Below are positions 33,485 to 55,869 of a stretch of DNA of 64,000 nucleotides, piece by piece. Every line of letters starts with the position of its first letter. Position 1 is the stretch's first letter. Under the pieces are notes generated by a model. The model had not been told where the DNA came from. It saw only the letters and a program-made list of their open reading frames with translations, and did not search any database. The translations under genes and the position numbers were made by a program. The stretch is from Chlorobiota bacterium (GTDB lineage: Bacteria; Bacteroidota; Ignavibacteria; OLB7), in assembly GCA_021296135.1 (NCBI GenBank), contig JAGWAZ010000002.1, positions 1,060 through 65,059 on the forward strand, written 5' to 3'.

Positions 33485-35773
33485 ATGACGATTATTCAAT
33501 CAACGTTCTCATACGTAGCAGTATTTCTTCTGACCTTGAGCTTTATCTGGGCACCCGACCTTTCAGGGCAGGTTATTATAGAATCATGGGAGGTCTTCAG
33601 CGCACTTGACAGATCCACTGATGTTGCCGTAGATGGAGAGGGAAAAGTTTGGGTTGGATCGACCGGAGGAGCATACCAATTTGATCCAGTTACCAGAGAG
33701 GCCACTGTCTATCGGACGAATAATGGATTGCTCAGATTGAACGTGACGGCTGTTGGTGTTGACAGAGAGAGCGATGATGTCTATTTCGGTGGTGATAACG
33801 GCGCAATTTCAATCCTGCGCCAAGGGGGATGGTGGACCTATGTTACCGACATCACGCGACGTTCTCAGTCGCAACGAGCTATTAACGGCTTTGCTTTTGC
33901 TAACGGGCTTGCTTACATCCTTACGGAGTTTGGTGTTGCCGTCTTCGACCCATCTGACAGCGTAATCCGGGAGTCATGGACCCGGCTTGGGTCAATACAT
34001 CCGAACACTTCTGTAAACGATCTGGTTTTCTACAATGATTCGGTCTGGTTGGCAACGCCGTTCGGTGTTGCCGTAGCCCAGTCTACCGGCAAATACCTTG
34101 CCGATCCTTCGAATTGGACTGTTTACGATTCAGTCTCCCTCTGTAGTAGTCTGAAAGCTCTCTCTTTAGCCGTTGTTGACGGTTCTTTACTTATTGGTAC
34201 TGCCGATGGCGGTTGTGAATATATTGATGGAGTATTTACTAAACGAGGCGATCTTGGTGGAAGTATCAGGTTCGGTACTAACGGCGACCAGGTTGTTGCG
34301 GGAAATGATTATAGGCTTTACAGACGGGAGCAGAACGGACTGTTTCGTGAGGTAGGAGAACTGTCCGATCGTCTTACTGACGTCGTTGCTCTGCCGGACG
34401 GATCACCTCTCGGTTCTCTTAAACGTACCGGGGTTGCGTTTCTCTCATCAGATTCGGTTGAACTCTTTGCACCAAACGGGCCTTCCTCTAACAGATTCGT
34501 CGATCTAACGTTTGGAGCTGATGGTTCTCTTTGGGGAGCCACTTTTGATGATGGTGTTGTTCGATTGAATGAAGGAGAATGGTTTAACTATGATGCTGCC
34601 AACACGGTGGGACTTTCTACGAACTCCGCAAGGCAAATCGAGGATGATGACTTCGGCCGAGTCTGGGTCTCAGCTTATGGAGATGGAATGTACATTTTCC
34701 AACCTGAGAATGATGGTTCGTCAAAGGTGGATGTGCAGCACTATGATGAGACGAACTCACCATTGAGGGGGATAAACACAAATGCTGCCTATGTGATTTG
34801 TTCCGACATCTATGCAGACGGGTTTGGTACAACCTGGTTCATCAATTGGGATAACACTTCGGGAATTCGTGGTGCGGTTCTTCTGGCAAGCGTTTACGAT
34901 CCTAAGACCGGTGTCGATAATTTTCACCTTTTTCCAGCCTCTTCGACCTTCCCGGAACTGACTCGTGCGTACGCACGCCTGTCGATCGACTTTAACGGCA
35001 CAATCTGGCTTGCTTCCGAGAATCAGAGCGGACTCCTCTACTTCATTCCTGGCCAAACGCTCAACGATCAGGGTGAGTGGAGGCGCATAAGGACTGCCGA
35101 TGGCTTGATCTCAAACGACCAGAATGCTCTTCTGGTCGATCCGGATGGGGAAGTATGGATTGGAACGCCAAAGGGATTGACTGTCCTGGTGAATCCTGGG
35201 GCGGTTCGGAACAATGGATCAAACGCGGCGATCTTCAGGGAAATTCGTTCTCTTAAGGATGTTGTTATCCGCGATATTGCCGTTGACGCTTTGAATAGAA
35301 AGTGGGTAGGTACCGATAATGGTCTTTTTGTTCTTTCAAGCGATGGTACAGAACTGTTGGAAACTTATACGGAGTCAAATTCTTCTCTTGTTAAGAATGA
35401 GGTACTGGCCGTTTTGCCTAACAATAAGACAGGGGAAATATACATTGGTACCGGATCGGGGTTGAACAAAATCCAAACCGAGGCGATTGAATCGTCGTCC
35501 GACCCCGATCAGATTCAAGTTTCACCACAACCTTTTGATCCTACTCGTGATCAATCCCTGCGGATCACAGGACTTCCCTTGAACAGCAGAGTGAAAATTC
35601 TGAAGCTTGATGGTTCCCTTATCACAGAGTTTCGTGCACCAGGTGGTGATGTCGGGTTCTGGACCGGAAGAGATGCCCGCGGTGAGTTGGTTGCGAGTGG
35701 TGTCTATATTGTCGCGGCAGAATCAGCCCTTGGTGAGACAGTTATAGGGAAAATTGCAGTTGTTCGACAATAA
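33485..35773 (+). CDS. porZ: PorZ-like beta-propeller protein with T9SS/FlgD-like C-terminal domain
   Basis: Signal peptide, repeated propeller blades, IAVDALNRKWVGT, YIGTGSGL; C-terminal PQPF...VKI..LDGSLI...W.GRD..G..VASGVY...GKIAVVR. Confidence 0.75.
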   Translation: MTIIQSTFSYVAVFLLTLSFIWAPDLSGQVIIESWEVFSALDRSTDVAVDGEGKVWVGSTGGAYQFDPVTREATVYRTNNGLLRLNVTAVGVDRESDDVYFGGDNGAISILRQGGWWTYVTDITRRSQSQRAINGFAFANGLAYILTEFGVAVFDPSDSVIRESWTRLGSIHPNTSVNDLVFYNDSVWLATPFGVAVAQSTGKYLADPSNWTVYDSVSLCSSLKALSLAVVDGSLLIGTADGGCEYIDGVFTKRGDLGGSIRFGTNGDQVVAGNDYRLYRREQNGLFREVGELSDRLTDVVALPDGSPLGSLKRTGVAFLSSDSVELFAPNGPSSNRFVDLTFGADGSLWGATFDDGVVRLNEGEWFNYDAANTVGLSTNSARQIEDDDFGRVWVSAYGDGMYIFQPENDGSSKVDVQHYDETNSPLRGINTNAAYVICSDIYADGFGTTWFINWDNTSGIRGAVLLASVYDPKTGVDNFHLFPASSTFPELTRAYARLSIDFNGTIWLASENQSGLLYFIPGQTLNDQGEWRRIRTADGLISNDQNALLVDPDGEVWIGTPKGLTVLVNPGAVRNNGSNAAIFREIRSLKDVVIRDIAVDALNRKWVGTDNGLFVLSSDGTELLETYTESNSSLVKNEVLAVLPNNKTGEIYIGTGSGLNKIQTEAIESSSDPDQIQVSPQPFDPTRDQSLRITGLPLNSRVKILKLDGSLITEFRAPGGDVGFWTGRDARGELVASGVYIVAAESALGETVIGKIAVVRQ

Positions 35774-43259: not shown

Positions 43260-43610
43260 GATGTTATTATTGGTGCTGGCCCAAAGGGATTGGCTTGCGG
43301 GGTATATGCGCGACGTGCAGAACTACGACAGGTAGTAATTGAGAAAGAGACTATTGTCAATACGATTGTCGGGTATCCTCGATCGATAACGTTCTTTTCA
43401 ACTCCTGAACGGCGCTCAATTGGTGATCTTCCCTTTTCATCTCCTCATTTTCGCCCATCAAGGCAAGAGGCTATTGTCTATTGAAGCCAACGTTCCCGAC
43501 CTGTTTCTGGCCGGGTCGGTTGCCTGCGGGTGCAAAACATGGGAGACTTTTATTGAAAATGGACGAGAACATGCAAAAATTGTGATGGAGCAGATCCTTG
43601 CCTATGCTAT
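43260..43610 (+). pseudogene. ypdA: YpdA-family (putative bacillithiol disulfide reductase) pseudogene with large internal deletion
   Basis: DVIIGAGPKGLAC...IEK...YP...FFSTPE..SIGDLPF...PSRQEAIVY* is joined out of frame to EANVPDLFLAG...FIENGREHA. The central NADPH-binding region and the start codon are missing. Confidence 0.85.
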
Positions 43611-43830
43611 TAAGAACTCAAGAGTGGAGGATCTTAATCTGAGAGGGAGGCTGAATGGTATTGTCTCCACACCGTTGCAGGGCTATATTGGGATTAATCC
43701 GTGTAAGTCTCAGGAATAATTACGCATGATACATATCAAGTTGCTATTCTCAGGACCGGAAATCCTTCCGTCAAATCAAGCTAACTCTTCACGTAGAAAA
43801 ACACACCGCTTCAATCGGAGTGGTGGTTTT

Positions 43831-45483
43831 ATGTGGTACGTTTTCCTCTTCGCATCTTTTTTTTATGTCACCAAGCTTTTCGCACAGGTGGAAGCACCGG
43901 TTAGTGGAGAAGGTCCGCGTTGGTTTGGAACTACCGGCAAATCGTTGCCATACGATACCTCGGCCCAGGAAGCGTTGGCCGAACGTGCGCTCGCAACTGC
44001 CGGTTTGCTCGAAGGAGCTATTGACCCGGAACAATATCATGTGGGGCCAAATGATATTCTGACGGTTACAATCTGGACTTCCAGGACTCAGCAGTATGAT
44101 ATTCTCGTGACACCTGATGCCAAGGTTTTGATACAGACTGTGGGGGAGGTGAATTTAAGGGATAAAACGTTAGCAGAAGCAGAGAAGGAGATCAAAAAGG
44201 CGGTTGCTCGTGTCTATAACGTTGATGCTTCAGTCTCTTTGAGGAAGATGAGAGAGTTCAAAGTGAACGTTACCGGTGCCGTTCGGCTTCCCGGTGCTGT
44301 GACTGCAACGCCTGCGACGCGGGTTTCGGAAGTGGTTGGTCTTGCTGGCGGGCCTTTACAACGGGGAAACCAGCGTGACATACTCATCTATCGACGAAAG
44401 CCTGAAGGAACCCGTGAGGTAATTCGTGTTGATCTACTTCCGTTCTTTGCTTTTGCTGATCTCTCCAGCAATCAGTTTGTGTGTGATGGCGATGTTATCA
44501 AGGTAGGTATTGTCGATCCGGACAATGTTGTGCAGATCTATGGTGAAGTTGCCATGGAGGGAGAGTATTCCTTCCAACCGACTGATTCGATCTCAACGAT
44601 CATCAACGCATCGTTTGGGTTCACGGCTAATGCCCGTCGCGATTCAATCCTGGTAATAAGTGTCACAGAGGCAGGGGAGATAAGCAGTGAGACGTGGCAT
44701 AGTTATCTGAATGATGGAATACTCACAAATGATCGTGCTCTCCAGAACGGTGACAGGATATTTGTTTGGGGCAAACCCAGGTTTCGTCAGCGGGATCAGG
44801 TCGTTGTGGCTGGAGAAGTGCAGCAGCCGGGGGTCTATCCGATTGTTCCTGGCTCGACAACCTTGCGGGAGTTGATTTCCATGTCGGGAGGATTTACTCA
44901 AGAGGCTTCCCTGATCGATGCAGTACTTATTCGCCGTGAAGCCATCGGACAACCCGATGAGTATTTCCGGTATGTTAGCGCGATTGAGTCTACGAATCGA
45001 ACATTAGATGAGCAAGCATACTTCCGGACGAAGTTGTTGGAGCTAGCCAAGCAGGGTGAGATGGCAGTAGATTTTCGTGCTCTCATGAACGGAGATGAAT
45101 CGCAGAATATCCCGTTGATGAGCAATGACTCACTTTACGTGCCGGTGCTTCTCGGCCATATTCGTGTTTCGGGCAAAGTGAAGAATCCGGGACACTTTCT
45201 TTACGAGTCGGGTTCAGAGTATGAGGCATATGTTGATAGGGCTGGAGGATATGGTTGGAAGGCGGATAAAGGTGAGACGCAGGTTATCAAGGGGAGATCA
45301 GGGGATCGATTCCCGGCTAAAGATGAAGAGAACTATATCCTTGAACCAGGAGATGCAATTTTTGTTCCTGAAGAGCAACCTTCAAATTTCTGGGAAAGTT
45401 TTACGATTGCGTTAACGATTGCGACGCAAACGACTGCGATAGTTGCTCTTGTCATAAGTCTGACCGGAAGCAACAATCCGTAG
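43831..45483 (+). CDS. Polysaccharide export protein with multiple SLBB domains (Wza/KpsD-like)
   Basis: YHVGPNDILTV export motif; repeated V.VTGAV..PG, GEVQQPGVY, SGKVKNPG SLBB repeats. ATG 43831 gives a clean signal peptide (alternative 43726). Confidence 0.9.
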   Translation: MWYVFLFASFFYVTKLFAQVEAPVSGEGPRWFGTTGKSLPYDTSAQEALAERALATAGLLEGAIDPEQYHVGPNDILTVTIWTSRTQQYDILVTPDAKVLIQTVGEVNLRDKTLAEAEKEIKKAVARVYNVDASVSLRKMREFKVNVTGAVRLPGAVTATPATRVSEVVGLAGGPLQRGNQRDILIYRRKPEGTREVIRVDLLPFFAFADLSSNQFVCDGDVIKVGIVDPDNVVQIYGEVAMEGEYSFQPTDSISTIINASFGFTANARRDSILVISVTEAGEISSETWHSYLNDGILTNDRALQNGDRIFVWGKPRFRQRDQVVVAGEVQQPGVYPIVPGSTTLRELISMSGGFTQEASLIDAVLIRREAIGQPDEYFRYVSAIESTNRTLDEQAYFRTKLLELAKQGEMAVDFRALMNGDESQNIPLMSNDSLYVPVLLGHIRVSGKVKNPGHFLYESGSEYEAYVDRAGGYGWKADKGETQVIKGRSGDRFPAKDEENYILEPGDAIFVPEEQPSNFWESFTIALTIATQTTAIVALVISLTGSNNP

Positions 45484-45527
45484 AGAAACTATCCTACCGA
45501 GACAGGATTGATCCGATAGAAGCATAA

Positions 45528-46790
45528 ATGTGTATGGATAATCAACGCTTGAATGAGGGGGAGAGTACCTTGTTCCCTGAGACCCCTCAACAAAGTTCAG
45601 CACGACTTTACGATTACCTTGTGGTCGTTTGGCGGCACAAACGTTTCTTTGTCATCTTCACGATAGTTGGTCTTCTTCTTGCAATAGCCTATTCTCTGAC
45701 CATCCCCTACACGTATGTTGCCACTGCAACGTTAATGCCGCCTGAGCGGGAATCGGGGTCACGGTCAAATTTTACATCGCTCATACAATCGGGTGGTATA
45801 GACCTGTTCGGTCTTGGAGAAACTTCTTCAGGGCGCATCTTTATAGAAATGCTTCAGAGTCGCACACTTGCCGACAGCTTGATAGAGCGATTGGATCTGA
45901 TGGAGCGACTTGGACTCCCGGAAAGCCGTATTGTTGCGATAGATGAGTTGAAGGGGAAAATCGAGGTTGAAGAAACGAAGTCAGGCGTCATTATGATCGG
46001 GTTCAGCATAGGCACGCCCCGGTTCCCGAGTGATGAAGATATTACCAAAGCGAAGACTCTTTCGGCAGAGATTGTGAACGAGGCCATCGAAGTCCTTGAT
46101 ATTCTGAACAGGGAGAAGATGGTCACTCAAGCGAAGAGCTCTCGTGAGTTCCTTGGTCGTATGGTAGAGTTGAAGCAAGCCGAGCTTGACTCAGCCCGAC
46201 TGAGGATGGCTACGTTTCAGAAAGAAAACCGGGCCTTTGCTGTCGATAAACAATTAGAGCTTGTGGTTAAGTCGCTCGCTGAAACTCAGTACAGGATTCA
46301 GACGCTTGAGCTTGAGATTGCTTCAGTGGAGCAGGAATTCCGGCCTGACGCACAGGTCCTTGCCAATATGAGGGGAGAGCTTGCGGAGCTACGACAACAG
46401 CAAGCAGCAATGTCTACAAGAGATGTCCTGGGTATGAATCTGGACAATGCTCCCGATATTGCTATGGAGTATTTGAAGCGGCGACTTGATCTTGAGGTGG
46501 CAACGCAAGTATACTCCTATCTCGTGAGCCAGTACAATTCCGAACAGGTGCAGGAGGCACGTGACTTGCCAACAATTTCGGTGCTCGATCCGGCTGTTCC
46601 GCCTGAGTATCGTTCCGCTCCTCGCCGTACGTTCCTGGTAATGATCTCATTTTTCATCATAGTCATAATTGGCGTTGTGCTGATCTTTTTGCTCGAATGG
46701 TTTGGCAAAGATGTTCGCAGGTTCAGTTCCGATTACTTCCCTCGATGGGTTAAACGAATCCTGCGTCTTCCTTCTACTTCCGGAGGTTGA
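45528..46790 (+). CDS. Wzz/GumC-like polysaccharide co-polymerase without kinase domain
   Basis: Two TM segments flanking a coiled coil; Y.ATATLMPP, LQSRTL, VLDPAVPPE..SAP.R. Confidence 0.88.
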   Translation: MCMDNQRLNEGESTLFPETPQQSSARLYDYLVVVWRHKRFFVIFTIVGLLLAIAYSLTIPYTYVATATLMPPERESGSRSNFTSLIQSGGIDLFGLGETSSGRIFIEMLQSRTLADSLIERLDLMERLGLPESRIVAIDELKGKIEVEETKSGVIMIGFSIGTPRFPSDEDITKAKTLSAEIVNEAIEVLDILNREKMVTQAKSSREFLGRMVELKQAELDSARLRMATFQKENRAFAVDKQLELVVKSLAETQYRIQTLELEIASVEQEFRPDAQVLANMRGELAELRQQQAAMSTRDVLGMNLDNAPDIAMEYLKRRLDLEVATQVYSYLVSQYNSEQVQEARDLPTISVLDPAVPPEYRSAPRRTFLVMISFFIIVIIGVVLIFLLEWFGKDVRRFSSDYFPRWVKRILRLPSTSGG

Positions 46791-46796
46791 GTTCGT

Positions 46797-47996
46797 ATGA
46801 ATTCGGGGACTACAACTTCGGGCGATAGCTTGGAACAGATCAGGGTACTTGCTATTGACAAAACGGCTGTACTGGCGCATGTTCGTGATCGGTGGGACAG
46901 ACTTTCGGCACACCAGGAGATCGATCTTGCTCTACTTTCACCCGATTCATGGATAGAAAACTTTCGCACCTACCGATTTACATCTTCAGATGCCTATCAT
47001 TTCAAGGCCGTCGTGGGGAAGGTTATCGGGATTGGCCGTGAGTTGAAAGCGATCTATCGTTCGGGATTGTTCAAAGCGTTTCGTCAGACTCGTCCTGAAG
47101 TTGTGCTGATGTTCGAGGAGTCCTTCTCCTTCTTTGCTCTGCAAACACTTATTGCCCGGAGGCTATTCGCTCCGAATGCCAGGTTGGTCTTCTACAGCAA
47201 CAACGTTACTTCATATAAAATTCCTGGCTACAGGCTTTCTAGACTCTACCGTGCGATAGCCAGGATTGTCACTCCACGTTGTGATGTAGGATTATGTGTG
47301 AACGATGCCGCCGAGAGAGTCCTCCGGGAAGCGGGCTATGGAATCGAAATCCGCACGCTCTTCTATGGGATTGATGAACGCCGGTTTGCTCCTGTCGAAC
47401 GGATAAAAGCACGGAATGAGGTAGGCCTTTCCCCCGATCAAAGAGTCTTGCTCTATGCGGGTCGTTTGATTGAATTGAAGGGAGTACAGGATTTGATCGC
47501 AGCCTTTGAGGGCCTGTACAAGAGACGGCCAGACGATAAATTAAAGCTTCTGATCGTCGGTGATGGGCCTTATAGAGAAGCGTTGCTTCAACAGGCAAAT
47601 GCTCTTGATGCAAAAGAAAGAATTGAGTTCCGTCAGGTAGTTCCGATCGAGTCGATGCCGACCCTGATAGGCGCCTGCGACATGTTGGTTCTTCCCTCAC
47701 GGAAAGAATTCAACGAACAGTTCGGGCGTGTGAATGCTGAAACGATGCTGTGTGGAACAACTATAGTAGCATCGACAAGTGGAGCGATCCCGAAAGTGTT
47801 AGGCGAAAACGGTTTTGTTTTCGAGGCCGGTAATGTTGAGGAATTGACTGAGAAGATTATCTATATACTTGAGCATCCTGGTGAAGCAGAGGACCGAAGA
47901 ACCAAGGGGCGAGCTTATGCTTTGAAGCACTATTCTACTCAGGCGGCTATTAGGAATCTGCTTCAACTTATTAAAGATATGACCGGAGAACGATAA
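46797..47996 (+). CDS. Glycosyltransferase family 4 (GT-B)
   Basis: YAGRLIELKGVQDLI, LLIVGDGP, LVLPS...EQFGRVNAE. Confidence 0.92.
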   Translation: MNSGTTTSGDSLEQIRVLAIDKTAVLAHVRDRWDRLSAHQEIDLALLSPDSWIENFRTYRFTSSDAYHFKAVVGKVIGIGRELKAIYRSGLFKAFRQTRPEVVLMFEESFSFFALQTLIARRLFAPNARLVFYSNNVTSYKIPGYRLSRLYRAIARIVTPRCDVGLCVNDAAERVLREAGYGIEIRTLFYGIDERRFAPVERIKARNEVGLSPDQRVLLYAGRLIELKGVQDLIAAFEGLYKRRPDDKLKLLIVGDGPYREALLQQANALDAKERIEFRQVVPIESMPTLIGACDMLVLPSRKEFNEQFGRVNAETMLCGTTIVASTSGAIPKVLGENGFVFEAGNVEELTEKIIYILEHPGEAEDRRTKGRAYALKHYSTQAAIRNLLQLIKDMTGER

Positions 47997-47999
47997 GCG

Positions 48000-49379
48000 T
48001 TGCATACCCTGTTAGCTGATAGAACGCGCCGTGAAACGGCAATGACACAGGATCGCTTCCTTCGCGACCCTATAGGCATGCTCATGCTTGTTCTGAGTGC
48101 GTTTATTCTGGGGTATGGTGGTGTCGGGTGGATAGAAACTCCTTTTCGAATCAAGTTCTTCGAGGCATGGGCCGGGGCAATTTTCTCCGGGATTGAGGTC
48201 ATCATTTTGCTATTACCCTGTCTTGCCATGATTCGCCGCATTGTCAGTGATGACTTCTACATATCACCATCCCGGTTGACCATGCCTGTTGTACTACTTG
48301 CTCTGTACATGGCGATCATCCCTTTCATCAGGATGACTTTTGCCGAGGGAGGATTTCGTATCCCGATGGAGGCAAACTTTGTTCCCTTCTTTATCATTAT
48401 GTTTTTTACCTGGCGTCTGATCTTTCATCCATCAGATGTGCGATTGATGGTCTGGATGTTGATCGTTTGTATCGGCTTCCGATGTGTTGAAGGGGTGGCA
48501 ATATGGTTCAGCAACGACATAATCTGGGGGCTCCTGACAGGTTGGAGAGATGGATTACTTCTGTCGCTCGGTCTGTGTGGTGCGTTGTTTGCCTACGTTA
48601 TCAGACCGGAAGGTGAAGAATGGTACGCAAAGATTCGCAAGGCTTTGTATATGATTTTTCCCCTGGTGATTTTTGTCTTTATCGCTTCGATGCGGCGTTC
48701 CTATATGCTCGGCCTTGTGCTCACAATTCCAATCCTGGCATTCTATCTCAAGCCCGCGGAGAGGAAGCGTCTTTTCAGGATTTTGCTTCTGGTTGCACCG
48801 TTGTTCATTGCTGCCATCTTTATAGTGGGAGCAGATCGTTTTACCAATCGAATAAGTGGGATTACTTCTCCAGGAGAAGAAAGCTCTGCAGCATGGAGGG
48901 TAATTGAGTACTACAACGTCTATCGGATGGCCCTCGAACGTCCGCTTTTTGGTTGGCCCTGGGGGTTTGCGTTCATTAATTATACCGGGATTGAGTTAAC
49001 CTGGCTGAATATCCTGATCCCTCATAATGTCTATCTGTATGTTGTCATGCGTAGTGGACTTGTTGGCCTTGTCTTTTTTATCTGGTTGATCTGGAGATAT
49101 GTACGACTTAGTCTCGATACCGTCAGAAATACTCCTTCACCAGGATACAGGTTCCTTGCTCTCTGGATGGCGAGTGCAACATTCCTTGTTGTCACTTCCG
49201 GTATAACAAACCCTGTCTTTGCCAGTAAATTGATAATTCTCATCCCCTTTTTGATGACTCTTACGAGTTTTCTCCCAGGCGCTATCAGATCAAACAACAA
49301 AGGGGAAAAAAAATCCCTTGCATACTATCACGATTCGGCTGATCTTTTCGTCAAAGAAAGGAACCATTCATCATTTTGA
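48000..49379 (+). CDS. O-antigen ligase/Wzy_C-family membrane protein
   Basis: Polytopic; SMRRS, WR..EY, RPLFGW.WG and the conserved HN (PHNVYL) followed by GLVGL. Start may be ATG 48042. Confidence 0.85.
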   Translation: MHTLLADRTRRETAMTQDRFLRDPIGMLMLVLSAFILGYGGVGWIETPFRIKFFEAWAGAIFSGIEVIILLLPCLAMIRRIVSDDFYISPSRLTMPVVLLALYMAIIPFIRMTFAEGGFRIPMEANFVPFFIIMFFTWRLIFHPSDVRLMVWMLIVCIGFRCVEGVAIWFSNDIIWGLLTGWRDGLLLSLGLCGALFAYVIRPEGEEWYAKIRKALYMIFPLVIFVFIASMRRSYMLGLVLTIPILAFYLKPAERKRLFRILLLVAPLFIAAIFIVGADRFTNRISGITSPGEESSAAWRVIEYYNVYRMALERPLFGWPWGFAFINYTGIELTWLNILIPHNVYLYVVMRSGLVGLVFFIWLIWRYVRLSLDTVRNTPSPGYRFLALWMASATFLVVTSGITNPVFASKLIILIPFLMTLTSFLPGAIRSNNKGEKKSLAYYHDSADLFVKERNHSSF

Positions 49380-52300
49380 GATATAACCTCTCTATGCACG
49401 TACGCAGTTTACTCAGTATCACAGCCTTGCTGCTCCTGACAGCGTTCCGTTCAACCTATGCCCAAGGTGATCAGGCGTTCCCACATCCTCAAGCTGAAGT
49501 GCGGATCATCACGAGTGATGTTTCATCAGTAATCCTTGAAGTAAATCAGCTTAAACCCGTCCTGGATTCAGAGGGGTTTCTGGTTCATAATGCACGCCGC
49601 TATCTCTTCAGGGAGGAGTTTAATGCCCTTCCGGAATTGCACTTCAGATTGGCAGTTCCAACAAATGCCGGCAGCCTCAGAGTATCAGTTCAAAAAAATG
49701 GAGAGAACGTCGAAGGGCTTGGGTCTCAAGGAGTTGTCAATGGCCTTAATTCGCAACAGCGCGAGGAGATTGAGATTCTTGGAGAGTCAAGACTTCGTTC
49801 CCTGCGGACCGTTTTCATTGTATGGCGCCCCTTTCGACTGCAAGGAAGATCGCTGATCTGGTCACCCGAAGCTACTATCAAGCTTGAGTGGGACGCAACG
49901 GGCGACATGGAGAAGGGAGAGGGTATGATTGCCGAGGAGATTCCGGTGATTGAAGAGGAACTCCGAAAATCTGTTCTGAACTATGACCAGGTACGATCGT
50001 TGCCCGGGTTTTCGACATCAACACAAAGAACACTTCTAAGCCGGGCAGATTCTGATTGGGGCTTAGGTGAAGAGGCACTGATTTTGCTGGTTCCGGAGAC
50101 CGGAATTTATACGCTAAGTATAAAAGAGCTTGTTGCGGCAGGATTGCCTTCTGGTGTTAATATCAACGATCTCCGCCTTCGAAATCGAGAAGAATTCGTT
50201 GAAATTCTCGTTTATGACAATGGTATAAAGAATGTGTTGGATGCCGAGGACGTTCTGGAGTTTCTTGGTGTGCGCAATCCGGGTGAGCCTGGCATTTATT
50301 TTAACGAGATTACCGATACCAATGCTTACGTGTTGACGTGGAGTGGGGGAGAGGGCAATCCCCCAGTAATAGTGCAGAGCAAGCAGAACCAATATGACAA
50401 CGTAATTGAGTCATACGATTCAACAATCCATATTGAAAAGGAAGAGTTCTGGTTTGGAGGATTGACGCTGCCGAAATATTTGGATGGCGACGTCCGTACG
50501 CTCCATACGACCGAACGTGTTCCACATGAAAGGTTCTATTGGCGTAAATCAAGACTGACGATACAGAATCCACTCACCTTCGACTGCTCTCCTGTATATG
50601 GGCCGGGATTACGAACAACTATGGACGTACGCGTTGCTGGCATTACGTATGTGGATGTTGCCAAAGGTTCCGTATCCCCTCCGCAGGAGATGACGTTCAT
50701 TCTGAATGGTATTACAATAGGAACGGCATCGATTCGAGACACCGCAGATACAACAGTCTCCTTTTCATTCCCTTCAAATTATCTCATAAACGGAACCAAC
50801 AAGCTCATCGTTCGACTTACCCCGCATGATAGTATTAGGAACGAAGTGATTATTGACTATCTGGAGTTGGAAGGACGGTGGTATGCTATGGCAGAGAACC
50901 ATTCGTTAGTGGTGCCTGCAACTCCAGCTCTTCATACCGGACTCTCCATTGTCGGTTTGCCAGGACCTGATGTCGGTTTGCCAGGACCTGATGTCCGGAG
51001 CATAGTTTCCGGGGAAACCTATCGTGCTGACTCCGTGGAACGGGGTTATCTATTCAGACTCTCTTCCAGGGCCGGAACTGCCCTTCGCGGATTTCCCGGC
51101 TTTTACGCTAAGGTAGGGGAGGAGCAAGCTGTAGCTGATGCTCCCGGGAGAGTTGGTGTCATGGTTGTGGAAGTGGAGCCAAACTCTGAGGGGGGGCGTA
51201 TCCTCCGAAGTGAACATTTCAAGACGGGAGAATCGTTCGATGGGTGTGACGCGTTTGACAAAGCGGCCGATTTCCTCGACGAAGTCGAGGATAGCAATAT
51301 TGTCCTGGCTGGACTTGCGTTTGCAACGGGTTGCAAAGAGAAGTCAGAGGCCTTTATCCAAGCATTTAAGGGACTTGGAAGCAGAGTAGTAAGTGAAAAG
51401 GATCTGTTTGCAGGTGCCTGGGTCTTTGCAGCGAGGAAGGGGGACCCAAACTCAGCGGTTGAGAAATTTGTGGCGGATGATCAGGGGATAACGGCTAACC
51501 TGTTCATTCCCGATCCAAATGGAAATAGGTGGAGAGCCGTAGCTCCAATATCAGGAGGCAATGGGGAAGAGGTCACCATCAGCACCCTTCTCGAACCCAG
51601 AATCCGACATCATAATGGTGACCAACTTATAGAAACGACAAACCAGGCCGACCTGATTATCATCACACACTCAGCCTTCGCAAGTGAGGCTGAAAGACTT
51701 GCTTCACATCGTCGTTCACATGATGGCTATTCCGTCGTAGTTGTAGACATTGAAAGAATCTATGATGAGTTTAATGATGGAGTAAAGGATCCGGTAGCAA
51801 TTCGACGCTTCCTTCAGTATGCCGATACGAACTGGGCAGAACCCAAGCCTGCTTTCGTGACGCTCTTTGGAGATGCTTCGTGGGATTCGCAGCAACGAAT
51901 GCTCGGGTCGATTATGATCGATTATATCCCGAGTTTTGGAGTCCCATCGACCGATCAACTCTATGTGGTTGCCTTTGGGGATACCACACTCACTCCCCGT
52001 CAATTCATCGGACGACTTCCGGCTACATCGTCGGCCGATGCTAAGGCAATTGTCGACAAGCTGATCGAGTACGACTCTCAGCCTCCAGCCCGATGGAACA
52101 AAAGGTTTGTCTTTGCAACCGGGGGATTGAAGGTGAGAGAGCGCGACCGGTTGCGCGATGATGCGTTGATCTTGGCCGGGAATGTGACTGGAAGTCCTCT
52201 TCAAGGAGAAGCGATTGTCATCTCCCGGTCAGGGCAGACCGACAGTGACTTGAGTTTGCCAAGCACAGTGGATGGTGATACTGTCAGAAGAGAAGTTAAT

Positions 52301-55300
52301 AGAGGGGCGGTATCCCTCGACTTCAACGGTCATGGTGCAACTACAACCCTTGATTTGAACTTCGGTTATCCTGAAGATTTTGACAACGAGGGTCGCTACT
52401 TCATTTTTTCTACATGGTCGTGTCAGACCGGTCTATACAGTGATCCCGGCAAGACGCTCCGTAACGAACGGTTCGTGACAATACCGGGTAAGGGGGCAAT
52501 TGCTTCGATAGGGGCGACAAGTTACTCCTTTACAAATGTCGACTTCAAAATTCGTGAAGGCATTTACTCCAGATTTGCAGATCCTGATGGAAATGTTCGG
52601 CTTGGACCATTGTTTGCGCTTGCCAAGCATGATATGTTTGCATTGTACAACTTCGGGTCGTTATATGAGCAATTCGGTCCCCGTTCGCGCACACATATGT
52701 TGATGTATAATCTGCTGGGCGATCCTTCCATGCGAATCCCAATTCGTCGAACCCCAGAGCTTGCAATTCCAGGCGAATCCGCAGTTATCTTGAATGAGCA
52801 GAATAAAGAGCCGGAGTTAGGTGATACGCTTTTGTTAGTCCGTGCTGCCCTTTGGAATTACGGTCGTCCCCTGACCGGTATCCCCTTTGATTCGGGGGTT
52901 GTTGTCAGGGCAACGCTAATTGATCCACTTGGAGAGCAAACATCGGTTGAATTGAAGATTAGCCGTCTCGTCCGGTTCGATTCGATACATGCTACGTTGC
53001 CCATTGGAACCACTGCAGGCGAATATGTTGTGAAGCTCGAAGCAGATCCTGAAGGAGTTGTCGAAGAGACATGGCTCAAAGATAATATCCTGACGCTCTC
53101 ATTCCTGCTACGTGGATCCCAACCGTTGCCCCTGGAGCCATTACCTTATGGGGTTGTAGAGGCATATGATGATATAACGATTCGATTATTGAATCCTGCC
53201 TCTGGTCCCGGTGCAAAGTTTACTCTTGATACGGTGCCGACGTTTAACTCGCGAGCCTTGATATCGAGCGATCAACACGGGAAAGTTGAGTTGCAGGAGT
53301 TGACGACAACTTGGGAGTTCTCAGTCCCATCGCAATTGAGGGATGCAACGCAGTTCTGGTGGAAAGCAATATCCACTTCCGGTGATCCTGACCTGGCAGA
53401 ACGATTCCCTCTTGTTGAATCCTTTACAGTTGAGAGGGGCAATCCAGATGTTGTCGAGGTGAGTGGAGTTTATCAGATGGCAACCACTCATCTTGTCGAT
53501 CTGGTAAACACCCCTCAGGGGGTTGGACCTGGTACAAGAGCTGTTCCGATCTATCTCTACGCAGTCGGACAGACTCGAGTAGACAGTATAATCCCGAGTC
53601 TGGAACTGGATGGAAAGCGAATTACGGTGCGGATCGGGAGCATAGATTATCGCAAGGGGAATGTGACCGGATTAAGTGTCATCGTACTGCCGCCAAACGA
53701 TGTTGTCCCTCTGATTGATACTGTCTTCAACTTCGATAAAGTCCGGATTGCTGACTTTAAAGATCTTGTGGACAACCATATTGAGCCCGGCCAACGGGTC
53801 CTTCTTGGTACAAGTGGCATCTCATTCTTTTTCGGAGCTGATGGTCCGAAAGAAATCAGGTCTGTACTCAAAATGCTTGGGAGCAGAGTCGCCGACGATA
53901 CTCTGACTTTTCTTGATTATGAGGGGTCATATGCATTGATAGGTGGGAAGGGGGTTCCACCCGATCAGGTCAAAGAGGCCTGGCTGCCGGCACGCCCTCT
54001 CAGAAGAGAAGGGAAGATTCCTCCGTTCCCGGTCGAGTTGTTTGATACGATTACTGCTATTCCAAGGGCAGGAGTCTGGAAGAGTCCGACGTTCGGTCCG
54101 GCAACTGCCTTCCGACAAGCCACGTTCAGTCTCGATCCTGTCTCATCGGAATCCCTTGATGTTGTTGTGCTCGGAGTGCACCGCGATGGAATTCGAGATA
54201 CACTGATTACCCAGATAATTTCTTCTGATCTAAAGAGTATAGATCTTCGCTCAATTGATGCTCTGGAATATCCACGGGTTGAAGTCCTGGCCGGATTTAC
54301 AGCCGATACATTGCAGCGGCTTCAGTCGGTATCGGTTGAGCTTGATCCATCTCCCGAACTGGCCATCGTCCCTTCAACTGTCCGCCTCTCTCCCGATTCC
54401 ATTCTTCAGGGTGATCCTGTGGCATTTGAGGCAACTGTAATGAACCTGACTTCCTTCCAGTCAGCGACCAATGTTCAATTTCAGGTCGATGAGCTTGGAG
54501 AACTTGGTGGGATAATCGATTCAGGCATTATAGATGAAATTGCACCTCTCAACTCGGCTCAAGTAAAGCTTGCGATCAATACAAACAGATTCCGTTCGAA
54601 CAGAGTATACAGGCTCCTTGTGAACTCAGATGACAGACCGGGCGAACCCTATACATATAACAATCGGCGTGGCCCCCTTCCTTTGAAGGTTGTCACCGAT
54701 GGTATTCCCCCGGGCTTCGCCCTCTATGCAGATGATAATCGTTTAATCGACGGCGATTTTGTCTCGCCACGGCCAACGCTTGAAGCCCGTGTCTTTGATA
54801 ACTCAGTTCTTGCTCTCGATTCAATTCAGGCGGTGACAATGGTACTTGATAACCAGTGGATTACTGTTAAGGAGGGTGGAATCCTCGAGTCTTTTGTTAA
54901 AGGCGATTATAGGGCATCATTCCGCTACACTCCTCCAGAGCCTTTAGCCGAGGGACCACATGATCTACTAGTTTTTATCAAAGATGCTTCTGGAAACGGG
55001 GACACTTCGGAAATCATAACATTCTTTGTCGAACCTGATGTGAGCCTCCGTACGGTAGCCAATTGGCCCAATCCGTTTGCAAAGAAGACAACGTTTACGT
55101 TTATGATAACAGGTGAAGCCCCGCCTGAATCTGGCGAGATTGCCATCTTTACTCCGTCCGGTAGAAAGATCAAGACAATATATTTGGGTCAGAGGGATCT
55201 TTCTGCAGGTGATCTTTCCATAGGCCATAATACTGTTGAGTGGGATGGTCTTGATGCGGACGGAGATCGGCTCGCCAACGGGGTATACTTTTACCGATTG

Positions 55301-55360
55301 AAAGTGAGCGCCGCAGGCAAAACAACAGAGGTGATTGAAAAACTTGTGGTACTGAGATGA
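49376..55360 (+). CDS. PorU-like C25 (gingipain-family) cysteine peptidase with two ILEI-like inserts, CARDB-like domains and a T9SS-type CTD
   Basis: Signal peptide; TGIY...DTNAY.LTW; ADLIIITH, IYDEF, LFGDA, IGRLP; FNGHG (His986) and WSC (Cys1016); LLGDP; C-terminal NWPNPF...WDG.D.DG..LANGVYFY...KLVVLR. Confidence 0.85.
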   Translation: MRYNLSMHVRSLLSITALLLLTAFRSTYAQGDQAFPHPQAEVRIITSDVSSVILEVNQLKPVLDSEGFLVHNARRYLFREEFNALPELHFRLAVPTNAGSLRVSVQKNGENVEGLGSQGVVNGLNSQQREEIEILGESRLRSLRTVFIVWRPFRLQGRSLIWSPEATIKLEWDATGDMEKGEGMIAEEIPVIEEELRKSVLNYDQVRSLPGFSTSTQRTLLSRADSDWGLGEEALILLVPETGIYTLSIKELVAAGLPSGVNINDLRLRNREEFVEILVYDNGIKNVLDAEDVLEFLGVRNPGEPGIYFNEITDTNAYVLTWSGGEGNPPVIVQSKQNQYDNVIESYDSTIHIEKEEFWFGGLTLPKYLDGDVRTLHTTERVPHERFYWRKSRLTIQNPLTFDCSPVYGPGLRTTMDVRVAGITYVDVAKGSVSPPQEMTFILNGITIGTASIRDTADTTVSFSFPSNYLINGTNKLIVRLTPHDSIRNEVIIDYLELEGRWYAMAENHSLVVPATPALHTGLSIVGLPGPDVGLPGPDVRSIVSGETYRADSVERGYLFRLSSRAGTALRGFPGFYAKVGEEQAVADAPGRVGVMVVEVEPNSEGGRILRSEHFKTGESFDGCDAFDKAADFLDEVEDSNIVLAGLAFATGCKEKSEAFIQAFKGLGSRVVSEKDLFAGAWVFAARKGDPNSAVEKFVADDQGITANLFIPDPNGNRWRAVAPISGGNGEEVTISTLLEPRIRHHNGDQLIETTNQADLIIITHSAFASEAERLASHRRSHDGYSVVVVDIERIYDEFNDGVKDPVAIRRFLQYADTNWAEPKPAFVTLFGDASWDSQQRMLGSIMIDYIPSFGVPSTDQLYVVAFGDTTLTPRQFIGRLPATSSADAKAIVDKLIEYDSQPPARWNKRFVFATGGLKVRERDRLRDDALILAGNVTGSPLQGEAIVISRSGQTDSDLSLPSTVDGDTVRREVNRGAVSLDFNGHGATTTLDLNFGYPEDFDNEGRYFIFSTWSCQTGLYSDPGKTLRNERFVTIPGKGAIASIGATSYSFTNVDFKIREGIYSRFADPDGNVRLGPLFALAKHDMFALYNFGSLYEQFGPRSRTHMLMYNLLGDPSMRIPIRRTPELAIPGESAVILNEQNKEPELGDTLLLVRAALWNYGRPLTGIPFDSGVVVRATLIDPLGEQTSVELKISRLVRFDSIHATLPIGTTAGEYVVKLEADPEGVVEETWLKDNILTLSFLLRGSQPLPLEPLPYGVVEAYDDITIRLLNPASGPGAKFTLDTVPTFNSRALISSDQHGKVELQELTTTWEFSVPSQLRDATQFWWKAISTSGDPDLAERFPLVESFTVERGNPDVVEVSGVYQMATTHLVDLVNTPQGVGPGTRAVPIYLYAVGQTRVDSIIPSLELDGKRITVRIGSIDYRKGNVTGLSVIVLPPNDVVPLIDTVFNFDKVRIADFKDLVDNHIEPGQRVLLGTSGISFFFGADGPKEIRSVLKMLGSRVADDTLTFLDYEGSYALIGGKGVPPDQVKEAWLPARPLRREGKIPPFPVELFDTITAIPRAGVWKSPTFGPATAFRQATFSLDPVSSESLDVVVLGVHRDGIRDTLITQIISSDLKSIDLRSIDALEYPRVEVLAGFTADTLQRLQSVSVELDPSPELAIVPSTVRLSPDSILQGDPVAFEATVMNLTSFQSATNVQFQVDELGELGGIIDSGIIDEIAPLNSAQVKLAINTNRFRSNRVYRLLVNSDDRPGEPYTYNNRRGPLPLKVVTDGIPPGFALYADDNRLIDGDFVSPRPTLEARVFDNSVLALDSIQAVTMVLDNQWITVKEGGILESFVKGDYRASFRYTPPEPLAEGPHDLLVFIKDASGNGDTSEIITFFVEPDVSLRTVANWPNPFAKKTTFTFMITGEAPPESGEIAIFTPSGRKIKTIYLGQRDLSAGDLSIGHNTVEWDGLDADGDRLANGVYFYRLKVSAAGKTTEVIEKLVVLR
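50950..50995 (+). repeat. Perfect in-frame 21-bp tandem duplication (VGLPGPD x2)
   Basis: TGTCGGTTTGCCAGGACCTGA occurs twice, followed by TGTC. Confidence 0.95.
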
Positions 55361-55521: not shown

Positions 55522-55869
55522 TTAGGCAATTACGGGGTCAATTGCCCAACTGTTTGTATTTCCCAACCAGACCATTATGACTTTTGGTGAGGTAACTTCC
55601 GGAAGGTAGTGCACCGTGACGAGGGCGGATCCTTTTAGAGCGTCATACTCCTTGTATTCAACCTTTGTGACCCCGTCAAGCTTGTTAAGTGCTTCGCTAT
55701 AGTCCATCAAGGCTTGTTCGTAGGGAACTCCGACAACTCGTCGTATGATAGTATGATCATTACTGAGCGTAATCCATCCACTTACAAGGCCTACTGTAAA
55801 GATCATGCTCAGACCCAGAAGGGCTATTGGGATATATTGGACTATTGTTCTGTGTACTTGCTGTTTCAT
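55522..55869 (-). CDS. Membrane-anchored protein with HMA-like domain lacking CxxC
   Basis: N-terminal TM; ALNKLDGVTKV...VTVHY.P..TSP pattern; GGAGG RBS. Confidence 0.65.
   Translation of the reverse strand: MKQQVHRTIVQYIPIALLGLSMIFTVGLVSGWITLSNDHTIIRRVVGVPYEQALMDYSEALNKLDGVTKVEYKEYDALKGSALVTVHYLPEVTSPKVIMVWLGNTNSWAIDPVIA

Follow-up and report, generated by a model that had tools for sequence, protein, structure and literature searches.

A conserved surface-glycan gene cluster of Ignavibacteria that ends in a giant PorU paralogue, a candidate second type IX sortase

Introduction

The way in which type IX secretion system (T9SS) cargo proteins reach the glycan that anchors them at the cell surface has been worked out for no more than a few oral Bacteroidia, and in these bacteria the genes for the anchor are scattered around the genome. 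A stretch of 64,000 nucleotides (nt) from a Chlorobiota bacterium (GTDB lineage Bacteroidota, Ignavibacteria; contig JAGWAZ010000002.1, positions 1,060 to 65,059), hereafter called the window and used for all positions below, carries genes for a Wza-type exporter, a Wzz-like protein, a GT4 glycosyltransferase, a Wzy_C protein and a giant C25 cysteine peptidase, five in tandem and all on the + strand. The original prediction, made from the letters of the window, had taken them for a module that builds a surface glycan and co-expresses a dedicated transpeptidase by which secreted proteins are attached to it. We asked what kind of enzyme the giant peptidase is and whether its place behind polysaccharide genes is maintained in related genomes.

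Our analyses pointed, at a probability somewhat short of even, to a conserved surface-glycan module whose last gene may encode a second, enlarged T9SS sortase of the PorU/PorU2 type. The giant peptidase has a signal peptide, a prodomain-like domain, PorU-like flanks, an intact His/Cys centre and a T9SS C-terminal domain (CTD), and comparisons of gene order indicated that it is co-inherited with Wzy_C and usually also with Wza, Wzz and GT4. The pairing of enzyme and glycan genes is maintained in many related genomes, which suggests joint production of the enzyme and its anchor. The genes of the locus are as follows (aa, amino acids).

43726..45483, + strand: outer-membrane protein of the Wza type for polysaccharide export (Pfam matches: Poly_export, 52.8 bits; SLBB, three stretches, 109 bits)
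45528..46790, + strand: Wzz/PCP-type chain-length or co-polymerase protein without a kinase domain (Pfam Wzz 44.7 bits; GNVR 36.9 bits)
46797..47996, + strand: GT4 glycosyltransferase (Pfam Glycos_transf_1 109.7 bits)
48000..49379, + strand, TTG start: Wzy_C-family integral membrane protein of the O-antigen ligase or polymerase type (Pfam Wzy_C 46 bits)
49376..55360, + strand: giant C25 cysteine peptidase, a PorU paralogue, with two possible starts, TTG 49376 (1994 aa) and ATG 49394 (1988 aa)

The giant peptidase is related to PorU

The giant was placed in Pfam PF01364 Peptidase_C25 (226 bits, above the threshold of 23). It scored below the cut-offs of the NCBIfam models PorU NF033707 (257.6 bits, cut-off 420, with matches to model positions 346-735 and 873-1095 only) and PorU2 NF052324 (231.4 bits, cut-off 450, about positions 395-879 of 879), and a further weak match to positions 37-146 of the PorU2 model (30 bits) was seen in the whole-genome search; PorU2 is its nearest named family, though at a score under the cut-off. 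In a PDB sequence search with the catalytic domain, the single solved relative was PorU of Porphyromonas gingivalis (6ZA2, E 2.7e-11); gingipain chains did not appear among the matches at E<=1, the fold models described below covering only the flanks of this domain. The giant had been described as PorU-like, and these model and 6ZA2 matches bear out that kinship rather than one with the gingipains.

The catalytic His/Cys dyad, recognised earlier in the motifs FNGHG and WSC, was indeed kept, the columns of His986 and Cys1016 being invariant in 37/37 giants and in 20/20 canonical PorU proteins. A quick tree of the C25 domain (IQ-TREE, 57 rows) split the 37 giants from the 20 canonical PorU by a branch with a Shimodaira-Hasegawa approximate likelihood ratio test (SH-aLRT) value of 100, in keeping with an old duplication.

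Whether a separate canonical porU exists in the same genome had been left as a question, and one was found on contig C11 (781 bits, cut-off 420). The genome also encodes SprA, PorV on a contig other than that of the giant (275 bits, cut-off 250) and a PorZ orthologue, which lies in the window at 33485-35773 (+) and matched NCBIfam T9SS_PorZ with 303 bits (cut-off 260). The type A CTD model gave 106 matches at E<=0.01, which indicates many T9SS cargo proteins, and canonical PorU was present in 59/61 genomes of the class. Because canonical PorU and the T9SS attachment set are held by the same genome, the giant is, by its profile matches and its place in the tree, an extra and divergent PorU paralogue beside canonical PorU. 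The PorZ gene is situated about 8 kb upstream of the glycan cluster, with fatty-acid, fmt and sdh genes between.

Domain architecture of the giant

AlphaFold2 models of residues 30-760 (predicted local distance difference test, pLDDT, 82) and 1125-1994 (pLDDT 89) were compared with known structures by Foldseek and VIA-align. Together with the profile matches, they divide the giant into the following parts (Ig, immunoglobulin; rmsd, root-mean-square deviation).

49484..49996, + strand: gingipain-prodomain-like N-terminal domain, residues ~37-207 (VIA-align 4IEF_C Z 12.3, rmsd 3.6, 155 aligned; 5MUN Z 9.6)
50408..50884, + strand: beta-sandwich weakly resembling carbohydrate-binding modules (CBM), residues ~345-503 (CBM36, CBM35 and BcsB rows, Z 6.4-7.5, a range that VIA-align calls common)
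51044..51520, + strand: ILEI/PANDER/POMGnT1-stem lectin-like domain, residues ~557-715 (Pfam ILEI 36.3 bits, residues 594-690)
51656..52738, + strand: C25 catalytic domain, residues 761-1121 (Peptidase_C25, 226 bits)
52331-52333 and 52421-52423, + strand: codons of the catalytic dyad, His986 (FNGHG) and Cys1016 (WSC)
52748..55063, + strand: array of Ig-like beta-sandwiches with one alpha/beta insert, residues ~1125-1896 (AlphaFold2 model, pLDDT 89)
55064..55357, + strand: T9SS-type CTD, residues ~1897-1994 (FlgD_ig 31.7 bits; PorU model positions 873-1095, 91 bits)

PorU 6ZA2 was the best Foldseek match of both modelled flanks (E 1.2e-11 for residues 30-760 and E 1.3e-16 for residues 1125-1994), generic multi-Ig proteins ranking after it for the C-terminal model, and VIA-align recognised PorU-like domains in the N-terminal model (Z 15.1, 306 aligned, rmsd 5.4). 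The ILEI-like domain aligned with 5GGN_B (Z 17.2, rmsd 2.4, 143 aligned) and with FAM3 structures (Z ~15), and its Foldseek template-modelling (TM) scores, normalised to the target, were 0.67-0.72. Among its structure matches were POMGnT1 stem entries titled as complexes, one title naming a mannosyl peptide; the ligands in these entries are presumably sugars or mannosyl peptides. The T9SS-like CTD, also part of the original prediction, was recovered by FlgD_ig and by the end of the PorU model, the match to TIGR04183 being weak (16.4 or 19.5 bits; 23.1 bits when summed with neighbouring matches).

The giant thus shares with P. gingivalis PorU (6ZA2) a C25 domain with the His/Cys dyad, flanks that are PorU-like by fold and a T9SS CTD. 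It differs in its length of about 2,000 aa, where the open reading frames (ORFs) of canonical PorU sampled from the class measure 1,322-1,493 aa, in carrying an ILEI lectin-like domain and further Ig-like domains, in having no porV alongside and in coexisting with a true PorU. With the gingipains RgpB and Kgp it has in common the Pfam family, the prodomain-like N-terminal fold and a large multidomain build with a CTD, but these proteins are without the PorU-type flanks of the giant and gave no sequence match to its catalytic domain at the E-value limit given above.

Gene order in the family of the window

About 24 full-length orthologues of the giant (1944-2009 aa, 37-97% identity), one of them labelled Candidatus Kapaibacterium, were found in a protein search, and among 301 genomes of the GTDB class whole-query matches were confined to the window's own family. 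There the giant was matched in 19/20 other genomes, in one of them (G016) as two ORFs. Family genome G122, an assembly of 95% completeness, gave no match to the giant and none to the Wzy_C of the window either, though this is one case only.

The window proteins were mapped by tblastn onto 19 family loci. Wza, Wzz, GT4, Wzy_C and the giant occurred in the same order and on one strand in 13/19, at 36-50% amino-acid identity between genera, so the five-gene order that had been seen in one genome is not unique to it. Wzy_C was the most constant neighbour, lying directly upstream of the giant in 18/19 loci, and it was still adjacent in three loci that contig ends cut (L027, L028, L029). Because the same order recurs in other genera at such identities, the five-gene arrangement, as judged from these alignments, is not due to chance.

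Giants and canonical porU in other families of the class

Beyond the window's family, large C25 ORFs of 1,600-2,000 aa matched only residues ~750-1994 of the giant, at 25-33% identity. Twenty giant loci from 16 other families were taken as the best-matching rows regardless of gene context; genes were called with a simple longest-ORF script, and as many as six ORFs upstream of the giant and one downstream of it were assigned with Pfam at E<=1e-5, unassigned ORFs being rescanned more loosely. Glycan genes were linked to the giant in 11/20 of these loci. In ten of them co-directional glycosyltransferases (GT2, GT4, GT9, WecG) lay directly upstream, sometimes joined by genes for flippases, UDP-galactopyranose mutase, heparinase-II/III-like proteins or AsnB-like amidotransferases, while in L044 Wzy_C was directly downstream of the giant and Wzi and a sugar transferase were divergently upstream.

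As a control, 20 canonical porU loci from 18 families were handled alike, three large ORFs being scanned separately. None of them (0/20) carried a cluster of several glycosyltransferase genes; a single polysaccharide-type gene (flippase-like or GT9) was upstream of porU in 5/20, and porV was directly downstream in 16/20. Since glycan genes accompanied 11/20 giants and such clusters accompanied 0/20 porU genes, the glycan link in this class belongs, as far as gene neighbourhoods tell, to the giant paralogues and not to porU. Most of the class has retained giants, with between one and four copies in a genome.

Several other features of these loci were recorded. A hydrophobic protein of about 445 aa (4-5 hydrophobic segments, 45-67% identity among members, no Pfam match), found in three other families, was encoded directly upstream of the giant in the following loci.

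L033:7717-9051: ~445-aa upstream protein
L034:7466-8809: ~445-aa upstream protein
L045:7801-9324: ~445-aa upstream protein
L046:8997-10388: ~445-aa upstream protein
L048:7743-9089: ~445-aa upstream protein

This protein may be an alternative partner of the giant. A Wzy-like identity was ruled out for it, since it has only 4-5 hydrophobic segments, shows no similarity to the window's Wzy_C and gave no match in Pfam.

Tandem duplicates of giant C25 or PorU2 genes were seen in L036, L043 and L079, and genome G331 carries three copies within 15 kb. At canonical porU, a Polysacc_synt gene (Wzx/MurJ-like flippase) was co-directional and directly upstream in four families (L055, L059, L060, L066). 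The canonical porU of the window's own family (L050, L051, L052) has no porV behind it, against 16/17 loci elsewhere that do, and a DNA_pol_B_exo2-like gene is directly upstream of it in L050 and L051 and the fourth gene upstream in L052.

PorU2, PorV2 and the C52 barrel

PorU2 resembles the giant in being a large PorU paralogue (ORFs of ~1,660-1,780 aa) that coexists with PorU. The glycosyltransferase-linked giants of the class matched the PorU2 model nearly over its full length (259-407 bits), whereas the type of giant found in the window matched only its second half. Across the phylum PorU2 exceeded its cut-off in 31/251 genomes, all in other classes. The three nearest upstream ORFs were scanned at 20 bona fide PorU2 loci of those classes; a conserved gene was upstream of PorU2 in 11/20, and the two that were tested were NCBIfam PorV2 NF052325 (562 and 554 bits, cut-off 325). 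The gene tyrS was divergently upstream of the PorV2/PorU2 pair in 8/20 loci (within L070-L087), and our literature search returned nothing on this conserved pair.

At the window the gene upstream of the giant is Wzy_C and not PorV2. A PorV2-like barrel is encoded on contig C52 (205 bits, below the cut-off of 325); it was present in 55/61 class genomes, including families that seem free of giants, and was not found among these genomes in the giant-bearing families f7, f17, f19 and f22. This barrel may be the PorQ-like protein of the class.

A complex model of the last 220 residues of the giant with the C52 barrel, a member of the PorV/PorQ family, scored 0.89 against 0.25 for the best control, past a mark that was reached by 58/80 solved complexes and 2/110 mismatched pairs; 86% or more of the contacts recurred between runs, and the pLDDT of the partner was 82 or higher. 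CTDs are known to dock on barrels of the PorV family, and near relatives of a true partner pass as well, so the model speaks for CTD-likeness only: the C-terminus as modelled is T9SS-CTD-like, and binding of this particular pair is not established by it.

Polysaccharide genes and layout of the locus

By Pfam assignment, the Wza, Wzz and Wzy_C-family components of the Wzx/Wzy-dependent pathway are all present at the locus. The best NCBIfam matches of Wza, EpsE and pepcterm_export, were below cut-off. The Wzy_C protein has about 10 hydrophobic segments; it gave no PDB match by sequence, as a single protein or as a 13-row profile, and no NCBIfam family, and its ESM Atlas matches were generic 'O-antigen ligase domain' clusters only. 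The gene had been called O-antigen-ligase-like, and the Wzy_C domain stands, but 'ligase' is the name of the Pfam family only: beside Wza and Wzz the predicted protein could equally be a Wzy polymerase.

Exosortase/PEP-CTERM systems are reportedly situated in exopolysaccharide (EPS) loci, according to Haft and colleagues. Such loci share with the present one a gene for a protein-sorting transpeptidase (here a candidate) amid Wza-like, chain-length-determinant, GT4 and Wzy_C-like genes, but they encode a membrane exosortase, whereas here the peptidase is a secreted C25 protein and the sorting signal would be the T9SS CTD. The matches to their models were pepcterm_export 91.6 bits against a cut-off of 180 for Wza, pepcterm_ChnLen 43.9 against 278.85 for Wzz and stp2 75.8 against 409 for GT4; only pepcterm_ChnLen was the top NCBIfam match of its protein. 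The resemblance is therefore treated as an analogy and not as membership.

The tandem arrangement with gaps of 44, 6 and 3 nt was confirmed as first described. The 4-nt overlap (TTGA) of the Wzy_C and peptidase genes is present in the DNA and applies if the peptidase starts at TTG 49376; a start at ATG 49394 leaves a 14-nt gap and no overlap. ATG 49394 is the more likely start, because the signal peptide that it gives (MHVRSLL...AQ) fits the N-terminal consensus of the orthologues. For Wza, the start at 43831 that had been chosen within ORF 43726-45483 is probably right (read MWYVFLF...).

Between 43000 and 56000, 24 promoter-like sites were found against a shuffle mean of 14.7 (standard deviation 4.0), terminator-like sites equalled the shuffle expectation, and no site clearly marked an operon boundary, in a scan whose sigma-70 consensus rules suit this phylum poorly. 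Housekeeping genes flank the locus, sdhCAB and a decayed ypdA upstream, and ftsE and pdxA downstream on the opposite strand. The probable decayed ypdA (bacillithiol-disulfide-reductase-like) occupies 43260-43719; a 99-aa ORF matches no more of the model than its final ~40 positions, a fragment of the N-terminal motif lies upstream and out of frame, and relatives of the window genome have a ypdA-like match at the corresponding place. A 115-aa ORF of no family at 55522-55869 (-) is convergent to the giant gene; it is conserved in position in two other genomes of the genus and, with weak similarity, in one further genus. The window genome measures 2.86 Mb at 99.8% completeness, against 4.4-4.7 Mb in three genomes of the same genus, and its small size may reflect genome reduction.

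Discussion

In P. gingivalis, PorU attaches cargo to anionic lipopolysaccharide (A-LPS) that is delivered by PorZ (PMC8545088, PMC5562754); this mechanism and the linking sugar are treated in these two papers and in PMC7468200. By comparison with that system, the giant would be exported by the T9SS and held at the cell surface by its CTD on a PorV-family barrel. Through a thioester at Cys1016 it would remove the C-terminal domain from some T9SS cargo, and this intermediate would then be passed to an amine on the glycan for whose polymerisation or ligation and export the upstream genes would be responsible. The ILEI lectin-like domain, and possibly the CBM-like domain too, would hold the glycan, as PorZ does for canonical PorU. 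The module with a dedicated transpeptidase that was first proposed is thus partly supported: PorU kinship, the dyad and the gene order speak for it, and transpeptidation is what we infer from sequence.

Our literature search, which did not extend to supplementary files, returned no paper on PorU2, nor one that places a PorU paralogue within a polysaccharide locus. The arrangement had been presented as undescribed. This applies to the link with a polysaccharide locus and not to the enzyme family, relatives of which already bear the database labels PorU2 (NCBIfam 'putative T9SS sortase PorU2') and, for the partner, PorV2.

A number of results weigh against a second sortase made together with its glycan. 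The cluster of the window has one glycosyltransferase, and a search limited to the five genes and the ORFs beside them found neither a flippase nor an initiating phosphoglycosyl transferase, so the cluster alone cannot build a glycan. No PorV-like gene neighbours the giant, the downstream gene being the convergent 115-aa ORF. The C52 barrel was rejected as its dedicated partner on distribution, since it occurs in families that seem to be without giants and was not found in four giant-bearing families. Within the family, GT4 is absent from an otherwise orthologous locus (L021), only Wzy_C is kept before a giant split in two ORFs in a complete genome (L025), and an MFS (major facilitator superfamily) transporter gene takes the upstream place of Wzy_C in L026. 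Of the 20 giant loci in other families nine were without glycan genes, five of these having the ~445-aa protein upstream and four no link of any kind. The 20 bona fide PorU2 loci were outside glycan clusters, and glycan linkage is therefore no trait of the whole PorU2 family. Finally, related genomes are non-independent samples.

Among other explanations the one that survives best, though rather improbable, is that the giant is itself T9SS cargo, a large hydrolytic cysteine protease or an adhesin displayed at the surface, in either case comparable to a gingipain with many Ig-like and lectin-like domains; its adjacency to the glycan genes would then reflect a co-regulated surface layer, or the giant would be anchored or decorated with the glycan by canonical PorU. 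A CTD of the cargo type combined with a gingipain-prodomain-like N-terminus (Z 12.3) agrees with this, as do the long Ig-like arrays, which are typical of adhesins, the complete canonical attachment set (PorU, PorV, PorZ) already in the genome and the ~80-100 other CTD proteins encoded there. Prodomain and CTD cannot, however, separate cargo from sortase, since P. gingivalis PorU retains its own CTD and the PDB title of 6ZA2 terms the crystallised form 'latent'. A cargo protein would also have to be reconciled with a catalytic domain that matches PorU/PorU2 and no gingipain, with two flanks that fold most like PorU and with the retention of 1-4 giant copies per genome beside glycan genes over most of the class.

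It is unlikely that the giant instead serves the polysaccharide, either by tethering the exported polymer, a capsule or EPS, to a protein on the surface or by processing a Wza, Wzz or Wzy component, with capsule retention as the aim. The tightest and most constant link is indeed with the Wzy_C membrane protein (18/19 loci), Wza and Wzz indicate a free exported polymer rather than lipopolysaccharide (LPS), and the giant has lectin-like domains. A C25 enzyme is not known to act in such a role, though, and in other families the neighbours are glycosyltransferases, WecG and flippases and not export proteins; tethering would moreover be chemically the same transpeptidation looked at from the other side, so that it overlaps with the sortase proposed here.

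Adjacency without functional meaning, as of a surface-protein gene retained by descent near envelope genes, is very improbable: the family loci share descent, so that synteny is partly inherited, and nine of 20 other-family loci lack glycan genes, but the order is maintained at 36-50% amino-acid identity though the flanking genes differ, distinct types of glycan cluster precede giants on separate branches of the tree, and the matched porU control gave 0/20.

The reading of the giant as a second PorU-type sortase could be taken further, to a second and self-contained anchoring system in Kapaibacteria and Ignavibacteria in which the lectin domains of the giant would replace PorZ and a subset of T9SS cargo would be tied to a Wzy-dependent, Wza-exported polymer and not to LPS. 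Such a system would be the T9SS counterpart of the partnership between exosortase/PEP-CTERM and EPS, with the glycan locus defining the anchor; we regard this extension as doubtful.

At these loci the genes of a candidate sortase and of its candidate anchor are physically linked, and the link recurs in many environmental lineages. It therefore offers a direct genetic handle on which glycan anchors which proteins, on whether two attachment systems operate in parallel and on the role of PorU2. If the giant is a sortase, the placing of a sorting enzyme within an EPS locus, known for exosortases, would extend to a second, unrelated class of enzymes.

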